DNA from: Escherichia coli | Lineage (GTDB): Bacteria > Pseudomonadota > Gammaproteobacteria > Enterobacterales > Enterobacteriaceae | Assembly: GCF_029227855.1 (NCBI RefSeq) | Contig: NZ_CP074356.1 | Reading direction: 5' to 3' (one strand) | Length of the DNA stretch: 64,000 bases | In this document: in pieces, positions 9,822-53,408 of the stretch | How the letters are laid out: the number at the start of each line of letters is the position of its first letter | How positions within the stretch are numbered: the stretch's first letter is position 1 | The notes under the pieces: model-generated | What the model was told of the DNA's origin: nothing | Seen by the model: the letters and a program-made list of their open reading frames with translations, nothing else | The model's database searches: none | Translations under genes and position numbers: made by a program

Positions 9822-10136
9822 TTATCTTTTTTTGAAAAAAATTAAGATAAGAAAAAGAACAATATTTGTTACAGGAAATACCCCCAAAACTCCCCAGTAC
9901 TTACTCCATCCTAGAGACATCGTATATCTACCAAGGATTTGACAAAACCCAAAACTTAACCCTATACCTATACTTCTTAAATTTAATGTCGTAGTCAGGC
10001 TTAAAATAAATAGAACAAGGATGGTAATAGCCCACCACAATAACCATGCCTTAACAAAATCAGATTTTTTGCTGTAAGGTTCTTTACCCAAGAACAACTG
10101 CCAAAAGTTACCATTTCCCATATAGAATCCATTCAC
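9822..10136 (-). CDS. small hypothetical membrane protein (104 aa, GTG start), low-GC
   Basis: ORF with 2-3 predicted TM segments (AWLLWWAITILVLFILSLTT; VLGVFPVTNIVLFLILIFF); AT-rich; may correspond to one of the small yigF/yigG-type genes of this interval, but I cannot verify that. Confidence 0.4.
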   Translation of the reverse strand: MNGFYMGNGNFWQLFLGKEPYSKKSDFVKAWLLWWAITILVLFILSLTTTLNLRSIGIGLSFGFCQILGRYTMSLGWSKYWGVLGVFPVTNIVLFLILIFFKKR

Positions 10137-10333: not shown

Positions 10334-10720
10334 ATGTTCAAATTATCCATCAGAAATATATTCTACCCATCCAGGCTTGAGCGTTTATCACGCTTTCAGT
10401 TCATAATCTATACATTAACATCATGGTCAATATTAATAACTTTGAATGATATCAACCTGGCTTTGAGTTTTATTCTGGTTATTAATAATACCTATGTAAA
10501 TATCAATATTGGAGCAAAAAGAATAAGAGATACTGGATGTAAGGCAATCTACTTTGTATTGATTTCATTGGGCTTGACACTTTTTTCTATTATCTCTGCA
10601 GCAATTGAAGGGATGAGATGTGAGTCATTAAGCGTCCAACTCAACGTGGCATGGATATTATTCACAACAATTATGTTATCTGCGATTCCCTCGGCTAAAA
10701 TGTCGCTGTCAGCACACTAA
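10334..10720 (+). CDS. small hypothetical inner membrane protein (128 aa), low-GC
   Basis: ORF with about 4 hydrophobic segments, preceded by a very AT-rich 200 bp region; ends 25 bp before the duplicated corA 3' fragment (convergent). Confidence 0.45.
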   Translation: MFKLSIRNIFYPSRLERLSRFQFIIYTLTSWSILITLNDINLALSFILVINNTYVNINIGAKRIRDTGCKAIYFVLISLGLTLFSIISAAIEGMRCESLSVQLNVAWILFTTIMLSAIPSAKMSLSAH

Positions 10721-10744: not shown

Positions 10745-10883
10745 TTACAGCCAGTTCTTACGCTTAAAGTACAGATACGGTGTCAGGCCCGCGAGGATCA
10801 TAAAGATAATCGCGCCAGGGTAGCCGAAGCCCCACTTCAGTTCTGGCATAAACTCAAAGTTCATGCCATAGCTGGAGGCAATC
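10745..10883 (-). pseudogene. duplicated 3' fragment of corA (last ~46 codons and stop)
   Basis: About 135-140 bp nearly identical (about 8 mismatches) to 12456..12595 at the true corA 3' end; encodes ...[43 protein letters not shown] versus ...[29 protein letters not shown] in intact corA. Confidence 0.8.
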
Positions 10884-11071
10884 CGCGTAGGAAAAAGTTT
10901 CCTAATCGGTAAATTCAACATTTTGTTATTAACAATGAGCAAGACCAATCATTAACGAGGTTCTCTTCAGAGATGTAATGAAAAAATGTGAAGTTTACTT
11001 CTTTTTTAAATATTTTTTTACCCTAGCATTTGTTCTCGAATTGATATTGAGCTTAAATATAACCAAGGCAA

Positions 11072-11926
11072 ATGCAAATGAATAACATATTACTTCCGCC
11101 AATTAATATTCCCTGTACACTTTTCGAAACTATTAGTTTATTCGATGATTTTTCTGCTGATGATATGCAATATGGTGATATGGTAGAACAAGACTTTCTC
11201 TCACTCGGCCTAAGCGATATCTCAGCAAAAGTTGATCCTTACAGACTTATTAAATACCATTTCCCTGGCCCAGGTTCTATTAATGTTGCTTTTAGTGCCT
11301 CAAGTTCCGGAACAAAAATATCACAACGTGAATGCACTGATATTTTATTTGCAGAAATGAAAGAACTAGCAAAAATGCTTTCCTTTTTTGGACAATATAA
11401 AACACTTATCGAAGATCTGATTGAACATTTTAGATATGGAAATGGCAGCAATTTTCATAGCCAACAATTAAATTTATCTTTTCATGAAAAAATAAATAAA
11501 TATGGTTATAATAGTCCAATACGAATAATCAAAGAATGTATCGAAAATGGCATTAATTCAACTCCCTCGACAGGATACCAACCTCTTATCCTGCAAAGCA
11601 TTAAAACCAAATTACTTTCATCAAGACTAAATAAATTTAATGACTTCGAGGACAGTTTTAATGGCTTAGGAATCAGTGTTCATGATATTTCAGCTCAAAA
11701 AATATCTCTTTTAAGTTTTCAAAAATACGCTATAGGATGGAGTGCAACAATTCATTTTGTAGCACAGGACCACTTCGGTCTTGATGTAACTGATATCAAA
11801 AACAAGACTTACAGCAAATATAGATTTTTTCGCATATGGTTCTTTTTACAACGGCATAAAGACTTTGCTTTCAAACCTTTTTTCACCAATTTTAACACTA
11901 TCGAAAGAATCGAAAATTATCTATGA
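11072..11926 (+). CDS. hypothetical protein, 284 aa, no recognisable motif; first gene of a low-GC two-gene cassette
   Basis: Long ORF in a region of about one-third G+C; AAGG Shine-Dalgarno 7 nt upstream; no signal peptide or TM segment evident; stop overlaps the start of the next ORF (ATGA). Confidence 0.6.
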   Translation: MQMNNILLPPINIPCTLFETISLFDDFSADDMQYGDMVEQDFLSLGLSDISAKVDPYRLIKYHFPGPGSINVAFSASSSGTKISQRECTDILFAEMKELAKMLSFFGQYKTLIEDLIEHFRYGNGSNFHSQQLNLSFHEKINKYGYNSPIRIIKECIENGINSTPSTGYQPLILQSIKTKLLSSRLNKFNDFEDSFNGLGISVHDISAQKISLLSFQKYAIGWSATIHFVAQDHFGLDVTDIKNKTYSKYRFFRIWFFLQRHKDFAFKPFFTNFNTIERIENYL

Positions 11927-12414
11927 AAAGCAAACTCCAGAAAATTATATTATGTTTATTTCTTCTATGCTGCATCTATAATTTATGGACATTGCGTCCT
12001 GTACAGATTTTGTATACATACTCTGATGCTGGCAATTCAGTCTTTCTGGTCGTTGATCATCTGCCATGGACTGACAGCGATAAAATAAATTGGTATCTGA
12101 AGCATCAGAATGAAATTAAAAATCAACATCCCCTACCAGAAGGTAGTTGGCATACCTGGTATGTCATTGATATCGGTAATGGCTTCACTGACTATAAAAA
12201 ATATATCGAAGGGCCGTATGAAGATCTCTACTGTTTCCCGACAATTAAGAGCAATGATAATTGCATCGTGAAAAATTACTTAATGGTTATTAATGAATAC
12301 CCTTATCGTAACACTCATATTGGTATTAACGATTTTACTGAGTATCAATTAACACAAGAAAATAAAATAGAGCGAGTTTTCAATCCGCATGACTTTAAAT
12401 ACGACAATTTTTAG
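11923..12414 (+). CDS. hypothetical protein, 163 aa, with N-terminal signal peptide or membrane anchor; second gene of the cassette
   Basis: N-terminus MKSKLQKIILCLFLLCCIYNLWTL (basic then hydrophobic); Tyr/Trp/Asn-rich remainder; translationally coupled to the upstream ORF; ends 41 bp before the corA stop (convergent). Confidence 0.6.
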   Translation: MKSKLQKIILCLFLLCCIYNLWTLRPVQILYTYSDAGNSVFLVVDHLPWTDSDKINWYLKHQNEIKNQHPLPEGSWHTWYVIDIGNGFTDYKKYIEGPYEDLYCFPTIKSNDNCIVKNYLMVINEYPYRNTHIGINDFTEYQLTQENKIERVFNPHDFKYDNF

Positions 12415-12455
12415 AAATAAGCCGGATAAAAAAATAGCTTTATCCGGCACTCATA

Positions 12456-13406
12456 TTACAGCCAGTTCTTGCGCTTAAAGTACAGATACGGTGCCAGGCC
12501 CGCGAGGATCATAAAGATAATCGCGCCTGGGTAGCCGAAACTCCACTTCAGTTCTGGCATAAACTCAAAGTTCATCCCATAGCTGGAAGCAACGAGCGTC
12601 GGCGGCAGGAATACCACGGATACCACCGAGAAGATTTTGATGATGCGGTTCTGCTCGATGTTGATAAAGCCCATCGCCGCCTGCATCAGGAAGTTCACCT
12701 TCTGGAACAGGGATTCGTTATGCGGCAGCAGGGATTCGATATCTCGCAGGATTTCACGCGCCTGCTCCAGTTGCCCACCCGGTAAACGCGCCTTGCGTAC
12801 CAGGAAGTTGAGCGCACGCTGGGTATCCATCAGACACAGGCGAACTTTCCAGCCGATATCTTCCAGTTCCGCCAGCGTGGAGAGCGCCTCATCGTACTCA
12901 TCGCCCTGATGCCCTTCCATAATTACCCGGCTCAACTGCTCCAGATCGCTGTAGATATTTTCAATTTCATCTGCCAGCTGTTCGATTTTGGTTTCGAACA
13001 GATCCAACAGCAGCTCGTAGGCGTTACCGTCCACCATTGACTGGCTACGGGCGCGCATACGATACAGACGGAATGCAGGCAGTTCACGCTCACGCAGAGT
13101 AAACAGACGACCATCACGGATGGTAAATGCCACAGTGGAGTTACCGGCGTGATCTTCCGCATCTTCAAAGAAGAAGAAGGAGTGAATATGCAGGCCGTCA
13201 TCGTCTTCAAAGAAACGTGCCGATGCTTCGATGTCTTCCAGTTCCGGGCGGGTTGCCAGGCTCTGGCCAAGTTCAGATTGTACGCGCAGTCGCTCGTCGT
13301 CGTCCGGTTCGACAAGATCAATCCATACTGCATTTACAAGGGGTTGTGACTCTTCGACTTCCAGCCGGGTCAGTCGGTTATTTTCCAGTTGAAATGCGCT
13401 CAGCAT
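12456..13406 (-). CDS. corA: Mg2+/Co2+ transport protein CorA
   Basis: 316 aa from [12 protein letters not shown]; C-terminal TM helices with the YGMNF signature (GMN motif). Confidence 0.93.
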
Positions 13407-13775: not shown

Positions 13776-14540
13776 ATGGCGCATCGGCTACTCATTGGTA
13801 AAGGAATGATCACCTTGAATCTCAAACGGATTTTTCTCGCCCTCACCTTACTTCCCTTGTTTGCTGTTGCCGCTGATGATTGCGCACTCTCAGATCCGAC
13901 GCTGACCGTACAGGCGTATACCGTTAATCCTCAAACAGAGCGGGTGAAAATGTACTGGCAAAAAGCCAATGGCGAAGCGTGGGGAACTTTACATGCTCTG
14001 CTGGCGGATATGAATAGTCAGGGTCAGGTGCAGATGGCGATGAACGGCGGCATCTATGATGAAAGCTATGCGCCGCTCGGTTTGTACATCGAAAACGGTC
14101 AGCAGAAGGTGGCGTTAAATCTCGCTTCAGGTGAAGGGAATTTCTTTATCCGTCCTGGCGGCGAGTTTTATGTCGCGGGAGATAAAGTCGGCATCGTTCG
14201 TCTGGATGCCTTCAAAACCAGTAAAGAGATTCAGTTTGCGGTGCAGTCAGGGCCAATGTTGATGGAAAACAGTGTAATTAATCCGCGTATTCATCCCAAC
14301 GTCGCCTCACGTAAAATTCGTAACGGTGTTGGGATTAATAAACATGGGAATGCCGTGTTTTTGTTGAGCCAGCAGGCGACAAATTTTTATGATTTTGCCT
14401 GTTATGCCAAAGCGAAACTGAACGTTGAGCAGCTGCTTTATCTTGATGGCACGATTTCACATATGTATATGAAAGGCGGGGCAATCCCGTGGCAACGCTA
14501 TCCTTTTGTCACCATGATTTCCGTAGAGCGGAAAGGTTAA
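13776..14540 (+). CDS. yigE: conserved protein of unknown function (YigE-like), probable signal peptide
   Basis: 254-aa ORF with an N-terminal hydrophobic region (IFLALTLLPLFAVAADD); synteny between corA and uvrD. Confidence 0.8.
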   Translation: MAHRLLIGKGMITLNLKRIFLALTLLPLFAVAADDCALSDPTLTVQAYTVNPQTERVKMYWQKANGEAWGTLHALLADMNSQGQVQMAMNGGIYDESYAPLGLYIENGQQKVALNLASGEGNFFIRPGGEFYVAGDKVGIVRLDAFKTSKEIQFAVQSGPMLMENSVINPRIHPNVASRKIRNGVGINKHGNAVFLLSQQATNFYDFACYAKAKLNVEQLLYLDGTISHMYMKGGAIPWQRYPFVTMISVERKG

Positions 14541-14576
14541 AACGATAGTTTTGTGTCAGATACTGAAGATGGCGCA

Positions 14577-14683
14577 GATGCCGGATGCGGCGTAAACGCC
14601 CTATCCGGCCTACATGACGTTGCAATTTATTGAATATGAATGATTTTTTAGGCCAAATAAGGTGCGCAGCACCGCATCCGGCA
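14577..14683. repeat. BIME-like cluster: two REP units flanking an IHF-like motif
   Basis: gatgccggatgcggcgtaaacgccctatccggcctac and ggtgcgcagcaccgcatccggca with tgcaatttattgaat between them; lies between convergent yigE and uvrD. Confidence 0.6.
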
Positions 14684-14686
14684 ACG

Positions 14687-16849
14687 TTACACCGACTCCA
14701 GCCGGGCGTATGCCGCCACCAGCCATTTAATACCCTGGCCCTGGAATGCCACCTGCAAACGGCTATGCTCGCCGCTGCCTTCCATATTGACGATGGTGCC
14801 TTCACCAAACTTAGCGTGGCGTACACGCTGACCGAGCTTGTAGCCGCTGTCGTTCTCGACCATCGGCGTCCCCATCCGTTGATGGCTGACCGGACGACTT
14901 ACCGTAGCGCGCAGGCGCACCTCTTCCACACACTCTTCCGGCAGCTCGCCGATAAAGCGCGACGGGCGATGGTAAACCTCTTTACCATACAGACGGCGGG
15001 TTTCCGCGTAGGTCAGCGTCAGTTTCTGCATCGCGCGGGTTACACCAACGTAGGCCAGACGGCGTTCTTCTTCCAGACGCCCGCCTTCATCCAGCGACAT
15101 CTGGCTTGGGAACATACCCTCTTCCATACCGACAATAAACACCTGCGGGAACTCCAGGCCTTTCGCCGAGTGCAGCGTCATCAACTGCACTGCATCCTGC
15201 CAGGTATCCGCCTGCCCCTCGCCCGCTTCCAGCGCCGCATGGGAGAGGAATGCCTGCAGCGGCATTAAATCTTCATCTTCTTCGTTGTAGCTGAACTGGC
15301 GCGTTGCCGTCACCAGTTCCTCTAAGTTTTCGATACGCGTCTGGCCTTTTTCGCCCTTCTCCTGCTCGTACATGGTGCGCAGGCCGGAGTCTTTAATTAC
15401 CCGGTCAGTCTGTACATGCAGCGGCATATCGGCAGTTTCTTGCGCTAAGGCATCGATTAATTCCATAAATCGCTGCAAGGCGCTGGCAGCTCGCCCGGCG
15501 AGGGCTTTTTCCTGCAACAGTTCACGACATGCCTGCCAGAGTGTTAACTGGCGATCGCGCGATGTCTGACGTACCACGTCCAGCGTCCGGTCACCAATAC
15601 CCCGCGTTGGCGTATTCACCACGCGCTCAAACGCCGCGTCGTCGTTACGGTTGGCAATCAGACGCAGATACGAGAGCGCGTCTTTGATTTCCTGGCGTTC
15701 GAAGAAGCGCATCCCGCCGTAAATACGGTACGGCATACTGGCCTGCAACAGTGCTTCTTCCAGTACACGCGACTGGGCGTTACTGCGGTAGAGAATGGCG
15801 CACTCGGCAAGCGCCCCGCCGTTGTCCTGCCAGGTTTTGATGCGGTTAACCACAAAACGCGCTTCATCGAGTTCGTTAAAAGCGCAATAGAGGGAAATAG
15901 GCTCACCGTCCGCGCCATCGGTCCACAGTTTTTTACCCAGACGCCCGTTATTGTTTTCAATCAGGGCGTTAGCGGCGCTCAGAATATTGCTGGTAGAGCG
16001 GTAGTTTTGCTCCAGACGAATAGTTTCGGCACCGGGGAAATCATTAAGGAAACGCTGAATATTCTCCACCTGCGCCCCGCGCCAGCCGTAGATTGACTGG
16101 TCGTCATCACCGACGATCATCACTTTGCCGGTGTCGCCCGCCAGCAGGCGGATCCACGCGTACTGAATGTTGTTGGTATCCTGGAATTCGTCCACCAGGA
16201 TATTGGTAAAACGTTCGCGGTAGTGTTGTAGGATATGCGGCTTGTTAAGCCACAGTTCGTGAGCGCGCAGCAGCAGCTCGGCGAAGTCCACCAGGCCCGC
16301 GCGGTCACACGCTTCCTGATACGCCTGATACACCTTCTGCCAGGTCTGCTCCACCGGATTACCGTAGCTTTGAATATGATGCGGACGCAGGCCTTCATCT
16401 TTCTGGCTGTTGATGTACCACATTGCCTGGCGCGGCGGCCACTGCTTCTCGTCGAGGTTCATGGCTTTGATCAGACGCTTAAGCAGGCGCAGCTGGTCCT
16501 CGCTATCGAGGATCTGGAAATCCTGCGGCAGATTGGCGTCCATATGGTGCGCACGCAGCAGGCGGTGCGCCAGCCCGTGGAAGGTGCCGACCCACATGCC
16601 GCCCTGGCTGGTGCCCATCAGTTGCCCGATACGATGACGCATCTCCGCCGCCGCTTTGTTGGTAAACGTCACCGCCATAATCGAGTATGGCGAGCAGTTT
16701 TCCACGCTCATCAGCCAGGCGATACGATGCACCAGTACGCGCGTCTTACCACTGCCCGCGCCCGCCAGCACCAGAAGGTTGCTGCGTGGCGCGGCCACCG
16801 CTTCGCGCTGTTTGTCATTAAGGCTGTCGAGCAGGTAAGAAACGTCCAT
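14687..16849 (-). CDS. uvrD: DNA helicase II UvrD
   Basis: ORF track gives 783 aa; true start MDVSYLLDSLNDKQREAVAAP gives 720 aa; Walker A AGAGSGKT; UvrD/Rep family. Confidence 0.93.
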   Translation of the reverse strand: MDVSYLLDSLNDKQREAVAAPRSNLLVLAGAGSGKTRVLVHRIAWLMSVENCSPYSIMAVTFTNKAAAEMRHRIGQLMGTSQGGMWVGTFHGLAHRLLRAHHMDANLPQDFQILDSEDQLRLLKRLIKAMNLDEKQWPPRQAMWYINSQKDEGLRPHHIQSYGNPVEQTWQKVYQAYQEACDRAGLVDFAELLLRAHELWLNKPHILQHYRERFTNILVDEFQDTNNIQYAWIRLLAGDTGKVMIVGDDDQSIYGWRGAQVENIQRFLNDFPGAETIRLEQNYRSTSNILSAANALIENNNGRLGKKLWTDGADGEPISLYCAFNELDEARFVVNRIKTWQDNGGALAECAILYRSNAQSRVLEEALLQASMPYRIYGGMRFFERQEIKDALSYLRLIANRNDDAAFERVVNTPTRGIGDRTLDVVRQTSRDRQLTLWQACRELLQEKALAGRAASALQRFMELIDALAQETADMPLHVQTDRVIKDSGLRTMYEQEKGEKGQTRIENLEELVTATRQFSYNEEDEDLMPLQAFLSHAALEAGEGQADTWQDAVQLMTLHSAKGLEFPQVFIVGMEEGMFPSQMSLDEGGRLEEERRLAYVGVTRAMQKLTLTYAETRRLYGKEVYHRPSRFIGELPEECVEEVRLRATVSRPVSHQRMGTPMVENDSGYKLGQRVRHAKFGEGTIVNMEGSGEHSRLQVAFQGQGIKWLVAAYARLESV

Positions 16850-52615: not shown

Positions 52616-52831
52616 AGGTGTATTGCTCAATCTTCGAACGGGGGGAGGATTGTAGCAGAATCGCATTTGAATGTGACCGAGTGAAAACCGCTAACCGGAT
52701 GGCTGCGGATGTTTAAATCAGAGAGGGAAGGCCGAAACCGGAGTTCATCATGAATCCATTAGACTTAGAAAATATCGGGTCGTAACGTTGTGTTATTACT
52801 TTTTCAGAGTTTACTAAGGAGAGGTTTACTC

Positions 52832-53275
52832 GTGGCGATTAATTTCAGCCCCAAGGTTGGTGAAATACTGGAATGCAACTTTGGTAACTATCCTGTTAGC
52901 CAGAATGGACAGATCAGTACGGCGTATTACGATGGCCGCATTCCACCTGAGATGATAAAAAATAGGTTGGTTGTCGTGCTCAACGGAAAAATTAATGGCA
53001 ACGCATGTATCGTCGTTCCATTATCAACCACTCGCGACCATGACAAGTTAAATCGTGGAATGCATGTTGAAATAGCCAGTAATGTTATCAATGACCTGCA
53101 ATTCTTTGATCAGCAGATACGTTGGGCTAAAGCCGACCTGGTACAACAAGTCAGTCGAAACCGATTAAACAGAGCAAGGACTTATCGGGGTATCTTAATC
53201 AATGTTTGCCACATGAGTTGGTTGCAGACATACAGAGGGCAGTCATCAAGTCAATCAATGCCATATCGCTCATAA
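52832..53275 (+). CDS. yifN: PemK/MazF-fold (toxin-like) protein, intact, no adjacent antitoxin ORF recognised
   Basis: GTG start 8 nt after AAGGAGAG Shine-Dalgarno; segments PKVGEILECNF, RLVVVLNG and NACIVVPLST resemble the PemK/MazF conserved core (GEIWLVDLDP / RPVLIV / LPVVVPVTS) as I recall it; symbol by synteny between rep and ppiC. Confidence 0.55.
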   Translation: MAINFSPKVGEILECNFGNYPVSQNGQISTAYYDGRIPPEMIKNRLVVVLNGKINGNACIVVPLSTTRDHDKLNRGMHVEIASNVINDLQFFDQQIRWAKADLVQQVSRNRLNRARTYRGILINVCHMSWLQTYRGQSSSQSMPYRS

Positions 53276-53408
53276 ATTGACAATAAAATCACCATCCCCG
53301 ATAATGACTCTGTAGCCCATAGAGGCCCTAAGTTTTCTCCCCTTGAGGGACCTGCGAAGCCCGGATTTTCCGGGCTTTTGCCATATATGTCCCCCCCTCC
53401 CTGACTGA

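Follow-up and report, generated by a model that had tools for sequence, protein, structure and literature searches.

The two-gene cassette described here lies in a 64,000-nucleotide (64-kb) segment of the Escherichia coli chromosome, hereafter the window, whose gene order is pldA, yigI, rarD, a variable spot, corA, yigE and uvrD. The cassette occupies the variable spot and consists of two overlapping open reading frames (ORFs), orfA and orfB. We propose that orfA encodes a DUF3289 cell-wall toxin that serves as an effector of a type VI secretion system (T6SS), and that orfB encodes its membrane-anchored DUF943 immunity protein, a reading to which we give a probability of about 0.8. Within this analysis, it is based on family membership, fold matches, conserved adjacency, topology and purifying selection; for homologues, other groups have demonstrated periplasmic toxicity relieved by DUF943, and T6SS-dependent delivery. 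The original prediction had singled out the cassette as the best candidate in the window for an undescribed system, a claim that is not supported: a published abstract already names the pairing of DUF3289 with DUF943 (Geller et al, 2024, Mol Syst Biol, PMC11148199), and there is a crystal structure of a homologous complex (PDB 9JDI). The pair is an ordinary member of a published, structurally characterised kind and is already known.

Profile searches matched both proteins over their full length, contrary to the earlier view that no family could be named for either. With NCBIfam TIGR03034 ('YPO3983 family'; curated cutoff 156.45; model positions 1-274 of 274), orfA obtains 436.6 bits, and it reaches an E-value of 1.7e-83 against Pfam DUF3289 (PF11692; model positions 2-270 of 272), which spans residues 12-280 of 284 and is its sole Pfam match. 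OrfB matches Pfam DUF943 (PF06092) with an E-value of 1.8e-26 over model positions 1-150 of 151. The tentative suggestion in the original prediction, of a domain of unknown function of ~280 residues accompanied by an N-terminally anchored one of ~160 residues in Enterobacteria, was well founded, since these are DUF3289 and DUF943. The adjacency of the two families, with the immunity gene co-oriented and directly 3' of the toxin gene, is kept in loci L005/L006, L007/L008, L009, L010-L013, L015 and L017. DUF3289 is known from Enterobacterales, where it forms the C-terminal toxin of PIX-domain effectors, is also found on PAAR proteins, stands beside VgrG in Enterobacter and is linked to DUF943 in T6SS-associated clusters of Klebsiella; an arrangement of PAAR, PAAR-DUF3289 and DUF943 was found here in Klebsiella and in metagenome contigs.

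The folds of orfA and orfB match both chains of a solved complex, deposited as 'type VI secretion system effector-immunity complex BtpeA CTD-BtpiA from Bacteroides fragilis' (9JDI; further entries 9JG8 and 9JG9). OrfB matches the BtpiA immunity chain, and the DUF3289 toxin domain of orfA is homologous to an experimentally validated T6SS effector. The structure was published by Li W et al. in 2025 (Cell Host Microbe 33:1901). The family-invariant residues of orfA are concentrated in its C-terminal third (Q232-D233-H234-F235-G236-L237-D238, D241, F253, W256, L259, Q260, R261, P269 and F270), with a second, smaller group near the N-terminus (D31, M32 and D36). Across 39 sequences, D233, H234, F235, G236, D241, W256, L259, Q260 and P269 are invariant. 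The columns of the C-terminal motif (Q-D-H-F-G-L-D..D, F..W..LQR..PF) are also invariant in 22 long relatives and are aligned in the crystallised BtpeA, and the motif is common to stand-alone, PAAR-fused and long members of the family.

These relatives also inform on delivery and target. Among 463 representatives of DUF3289, three kinds of architecture were distinguished: stand-alone proteins of ~280 residues resembling orfA; proteins of ~400-450 residues that carry the whole domain behind a PAAR motif or another N-terminal module; and proteins of 600-1,450 residues in which the match is limited to the C-terminal ~190 residues, equivalent to orfA 85-280. In a sample of 22 extended relatives, the partner domains were PAAR (6), Peptidase_M23 (3), SH3_3 (2-3), PG_binding_1 (2), Peptidase_M14 (2), VWA (2), a glycoside-hydrolase-like domain (1) and an eCIS core domain (1). 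The fusions to spike-tip domains support delivery by contractile injection, and those to peptidoglycan-binding and peptidoglycan-cleaving domains support a target in the cell wall. To judge from such domain combinations, the DUF3289 toxin module is evidently reused outside T6SSs and beside other cell-wall enzymes; the long relatives in question are P0245-P0301 of alignment A6.

The two ORFs were found where the original prediction had placed them, the stop codon of orfA and the start codon of orfB overlapping as ATGA (Table 1). Both are genuine genes, because an improbable open length (the chance of the frame staying open at the composition of the segment is 3.9e-10 for orfA and 4.0e-6 for orfB) is combined with a signature of purifying selection on each. 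The ratio of nonsynonymous to synonymous divergence (dN/dS) between divergent alleles is 0.11-0.22 for orfA and 0.13-0.17 for orfB, compared with at most 0.02 for corA and 0.03-0.06 for rarD, values which indicate that the pair is maintained under purifying selection and evolves faster than its core neighbours. The first product had been described as a soluble protein of 284 residues. It indeed contains no hydrophobic segment of transmembrane (TM) strength (best 19-residue Kyte-Doolittle mean 1.44), but its length may need revision: RefSeq places the start at the second ATG, at 11078, six bases downstream of 11072, which gives 282 residues, and this is likely to be the true start because its spacing from the AAGG ribosome-binding site is better.

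OrfB is a putative bitopic inner-membrane protein, predicted to have a TM helix at about residues 8-26, an N-in orientation and a periplasmic alpha/beta domain. The signal anchor and the richness in Tyr, Trp and Asn ascribed to it earlier are both borne out, with a hydrophobic segment at residues 8-26 (19-residue Kyte-Doolittle mean 1.79) preceded by K2, K4 and K7, a helix at residues 2-24 in the AlphaFold model, no lipobox in the protein, and contents of 8.6% Tyr, 3.1% Trp and 9.2% Asn. Cys104 and Cys114, which are located in the globular part and are invariant among orfB homologues, fit a periplasmic disulfide.

We hypothesise that orfA, loaded non-covalently on the tube or spike of a T6SS, would be delivered by injection to the periplasm of Gram-negative neighbours, where it would harm the biogenesis or integrity of the cell wall, leading to loss of the rod shape and death of the target. 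A colicin-M-like action on the cell wall has been proposed on the basis of a Foldseek match to PaeM (4G76) (Geller et al, 2024); the precursor lipid II is the point of attack suggested in the literature. OrfB, held in the inner membrane by its single N-terminal helix with the globular domain in the periplasm, would bind the toxin arriving from sister cells and block its C-terminal catalytic region. The ATGA overlap may couple translation of the two genes, in such a way that immunity is produced whenever the toxin is produced. Three elements of this scheme are inferred: that a T6SS of this strain delivers orfA, how orfA is loaded, and that its substrate is lipid II.

The question of delivery is where the most serious rival has to be weighed. 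No T6SS genes are present in the 64-kb window. In the closest genome, that of E. coli Santai, the aspV island (L003 19855-47618) holds a complete T6SS cluster, including an Hcp-VgrG-Rhs module, in which two genes are annotated as pseudogenes, tssH (ClpV) on account of an internal stop and the VasL-domain gene on account of a frameshift; none of the genomes examined is identical to the window. The pair is also present in E. coli B, whose aspV site contains no T6SS. The Pfam search of orfA revealed no recognisable T6SS loading determinant, whether a PAAR, VgrG, Hcp or Rhs fusion or a PIX or WHIX N-terminal domain, and no adaptor, VgrG or Hcp gene adjoins the pair, whose neighbours are the corA remnant and corA. 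In E. coli SCU-485 (L012 3003-3857), orfA is frameshifted, with 10 in-frame stops, and the downstream DUF943 gene is intact, possibly representing an 'orphan immunity' state. It could thus be hypothesised that the locus is an immunity island, which many E. coli lineages would keep for the sake of orfB against the DUF3289 toxins of competitors, while orfA, undelivered for lack of a functional T6SS or a loading partner, would slowly decay. We consider this unlikely, although it is the best-supported rival and may be a variant of the effector-immunity reading for T6SS-defective lineages. OrfA is intact in four of the five E. coli alleles sampled and in Salmonella, and it is not in neutral decay, its dN/dS being as low as that of orfB. 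Nor is a T6SS loading determinant obligatory: unmarked cargo effectors exist, an example being the orphan DUF3289 effector of Aeromonas, which is delivered by a T6SS (PMC12135965).

The bare form of the domain also admits a more speculative and rather improbable reading, namely that the conserved N-terminal ~80 residues of DUF3289 act as a built-in T6SS loading signal, or that the protein takes a T6SS-independent route to its targets or to the producer's own periplasm, either of which would amount to an undescribed export or use of bare DUF3289. The ground for it is that the DUF3289 protein of E. coli and Salmonella, with no PAAR, PIX or VgrG module, is under purifying selection even in E. coli B, a lineage with no T6SS at the usual aspV site. 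If it were true, the pair between rarD and corA would have a role beyond contact-dependent killing.

The proposed chemistry further brings to mind a colicin-M-type released bacteriocin, in which orfA would be freed by lysis or leakage, enter through an outer-membrane receptor and TonB and cleave lipid II, with orfB in the role of Cmi and the T6SS uninvolved. Colicin M, PaeM and pectocin M, together with Cmi, are a proposed functional analogue of the pair, with a toxin that acts on a periplasmic cell-wall precursor and a membrane-anchored periplasmic immunity protein. Cmi has the same membrane-anchored, periplasmic topology as that predicted for orfB, orfA is about the size of colicin M, and the stand-alone form persists in a lineage that has no T6SS at aspV. 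The catalytic signature of colicin M, DxYDx5HR, was not found in a regular-expression search of orfA, the family's own invariant acidic/His motif being DHFGLDxxD. A search of orfA gave no Pfam match to Colicin_M at E <= 10, and the orfA-family profile (A1) retrieved no ColM, PaeM or pectocin chain from the PDB at E <= 10. The likeness of DUF3289 to PaeM 4G76 reported from Foldseek (PMC11148199) was reproduced here weakly, as a resemblance of the orfA fold to a colicin M-like fold with a Foldseek probability of 0.57. We regard a released bacteriocin as highly improbable, and scarcely any credence can be given to an anti-phage defence, abortive-infection or intracellular toxin-antitoxin module; both find little or no support. 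The original prediction had listed effector/immunity pairs first among its candidate architectures, which was the apt choice, followed by these anti-phage, abortive-infection and toxin-antitoxin modules, which fit the generic architecture alone, that of a variable spot containing two small AT-rich genes that are translated together. Against them, PADLOC-DB 2.0 gave no match at E <= 0.1 for orfA, orfB or two other ORFs of the island, the neighbours (rarD, yigG-like ORFs and corA) do not make up a defence island, and there is no true carriage by phages or plasmids. Moreover, the homologue that has been tested is toxic on periplasmic targeting and thus acts outside the cytoplasm of the producer, the globular domain of the antidote is predicted to be periplasmic, and both folds match the T6SS effector-immunity crystal complex.

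At the population level, 5,426 complete E. coli genomes were surveyed, and the pair is present at a coverage of at least 80% in 2,633 of them, O157:H7 and E. coli B among these. The AT-rich insertion in a conserved core locus that had been noted earlier is real: the orfA-orfB segment has a guanine-cytosine (GC) content of 32.7%, compared with about 52% in the flanks, K-12 has yigG-yigF at this spot and lacks the cassette, and the cassette abuts a remnant of corA. Besides the K-12 layout, three others occur between rarD and corA. In the 'simple' layout (e.g. L010), which is also found in Salmonella enterica subspecies houtenae and arizonae, the pair stands directly between rarD and corA; strain EC11 has yigG-yigF, a 147-nucleotide corA 3' remnant, the pair and an intact corA; the window and O157:H7 share this composite organisation but differ from EC11 in the left part. 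From about position 10892 of the window, directly after the corA remnant, the sequence is homologous to the simple layout (L010), and the whole pair is 89% identical. The remnant measures 137-147 nucleotides and, in the closest genome, bears the RefSeq annotation of a partial CorA pseudogene. It shares ~94% identity with the window's own corA 3' end, and 96.4% over 137 nucleotides with K-12 corA. Because the homology to the simple layout begins right after the remnant, the composite layout looks like a recombination join of yigGF-type and pair-type loci through the corA 3' end rather than a mobile-element insertion; no integrase, transposase, plasmid or phage association of the pair was found. 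A consensus scan of the region upstream of orfA (10892..11077) returned no sigma-70-like site. The same kind of scan scored the hairpin at 12421..12448 as terminator-like on the minus (corA) strand, and this hairpin is probably a terminator shared by orfB and corA.

Table 1. Positions of the cassette and its adjoining features in the window.
Feature	Position	Strand	Remarks
corA 3' remnant (last ~47 codons)	10745..10891	-	borders the cassette on the left; in direct repeat with the intact corA 3' end, 12456-12600 (-)
5' untranslated/promoter region of the cassette	10892..11077	+	AAGG Shine-Dalgarno sequence at 11065-11068
orfA, stand-alone DUF3289 / YPO3983-family protein, putative T6SS antibacterial effector (toxin)	11072..11926	+	284 residues
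orfB, DUF943 protein, putative cognate immunity protein	11923..12414	+	163 residues
GC-rich hairpin, 11-bp stem	12421..12448	.	separates the stop codons of the convergent genes orfB and corA

Synonymous divergence among E. coli orfA alleles is 0.30-0.44, compared with 0.04-0.16 for the flanking genes, and the alleles are therefore old or imported. In the mosaic allele L011 (3003-4339, corresponding to window 11078-12414), the first ~600 nucleotides of orfA are 81-90% identical to the window, and the last third of orfA and the entire orfB are 98-100% identical. Recombination has thus broken the allele within the toxin gene, and the antidote travels with the catalytic end of its toxin. At an unrelated locus of Enterobacter (L009 6499-9319, Logan SRR11948719), two DUF3289-DUF943 pairs stand in tandem, the first effector being shortened to 225 residues. 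Such tandem arrays are typical of effector-immunity diversification.

Some other features of the window deserve mention. The left part that replaces the yigG-yigF of K-12 contains a membrane ORF of 104 residues (9822-10136, minus strand; WP_000526430.1), which matched no known family, and a small membrane ORF of 128 residues (10334-10720, plus strand), which carries no RefSeq annotation in the closest genome and is a distant relative of YigG (29% identity, E 7e-5; NF008474, E 8e-6). Relative to Santai (L016/L001), the window lacks three segments, with junctions at ~14540-14687, ~20652 and ~28995: between yigE and uvrD, a gene of the SAM hydrolase/halogenase family; between cyaY and lptM, a pair of neighbouring hypothetical genes (441 and 492 residues); and ~1.6 kb comprising most of aslA. 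At ~52829-53278 (mapped from L016 5658-6107), a solitary toxin gene of the PemK/MazF family, which is probably the yifN of K-12, is located between rep and ppiC; no annotated antitoxin adjoins it in the closest genome.

RefSeq already gives family names to such proteins in thousands of genomes, and the present analysis adds little that is new. It does allow a fuller annotation, in which 'YPO3983 family protein' becomes a putative T6SS cell-wall effector and 'DUF943 family protein' its putative immunity protein. Roughly one in two complete E. coli genomes carries a DUF943 immunity gene, O157:H7 and the B/BL21 laboratory lineage among them, and this matters when such E. coli serve as prey or as expression hosts for DUF3289 toxins.

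DUF3289/DUF943 has already been published as a toxin-immunity pair, with T6SS delivery shown in one species and a crystal structure obtained from another. A close precedent is the pair T6EC1 and T6IC1 of Yersinia pseudotuberculosis IP32881. On periplasmic targeting, T6EC1, a PAAR-DUF3289 protein encoded in a T6SS operon, proves toxic to E. coli BL21, whose cells become round; the DUF943 protein encoded downstream, T6IC1 (TM 7-26, the rest periplasmic), rescues them. The authors state that T6SS-dependent secretion of T6EC1 was not demonstrated (PMC11148199). The window shares with this pair both Pfam families in the orfA-orfB order and a DUF943 protein in which an N-terminal TM helix precedes a periplasmic domain, but its orfA is a bare DUF3289 domain, far from any T6SS gene. 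The orphan DUF3289 effector of Aeromonas jandaei DSM 7311 (WP_042032936.1) is likewise not encoded beside T6SS genes; it is present in the T6SS-dependent secretome and forms with its downstream gene, which gives protection, a genuine effector-immunity pair confirmed by competition assays (Fridman et al, 2025, PLoS Biol, PMC12135965). The A. jandaei immunity protein differs, having 95 residues and being described with a signal peptide and three TM helices, compared with the 163-residue single-pass DUF943 protein. The third relative is BtpeA (Bfe5) of Bacteroides fragilis with its immunity protein BtpiA, the homologous complex that was crystallised. The 608 residues of BtpeA include a long N-terminal part, and the protein requires both the adaptor BtapC and co-secretion with BtaeB (PMC13402684); the complex belongs to another phylum and another T6SS subtype, and sequence identity is only ~17-20%, BtpiA not being detectable as DUF943 by sequence, whereas the folds of both chains are matched by those of orfA and orfB.
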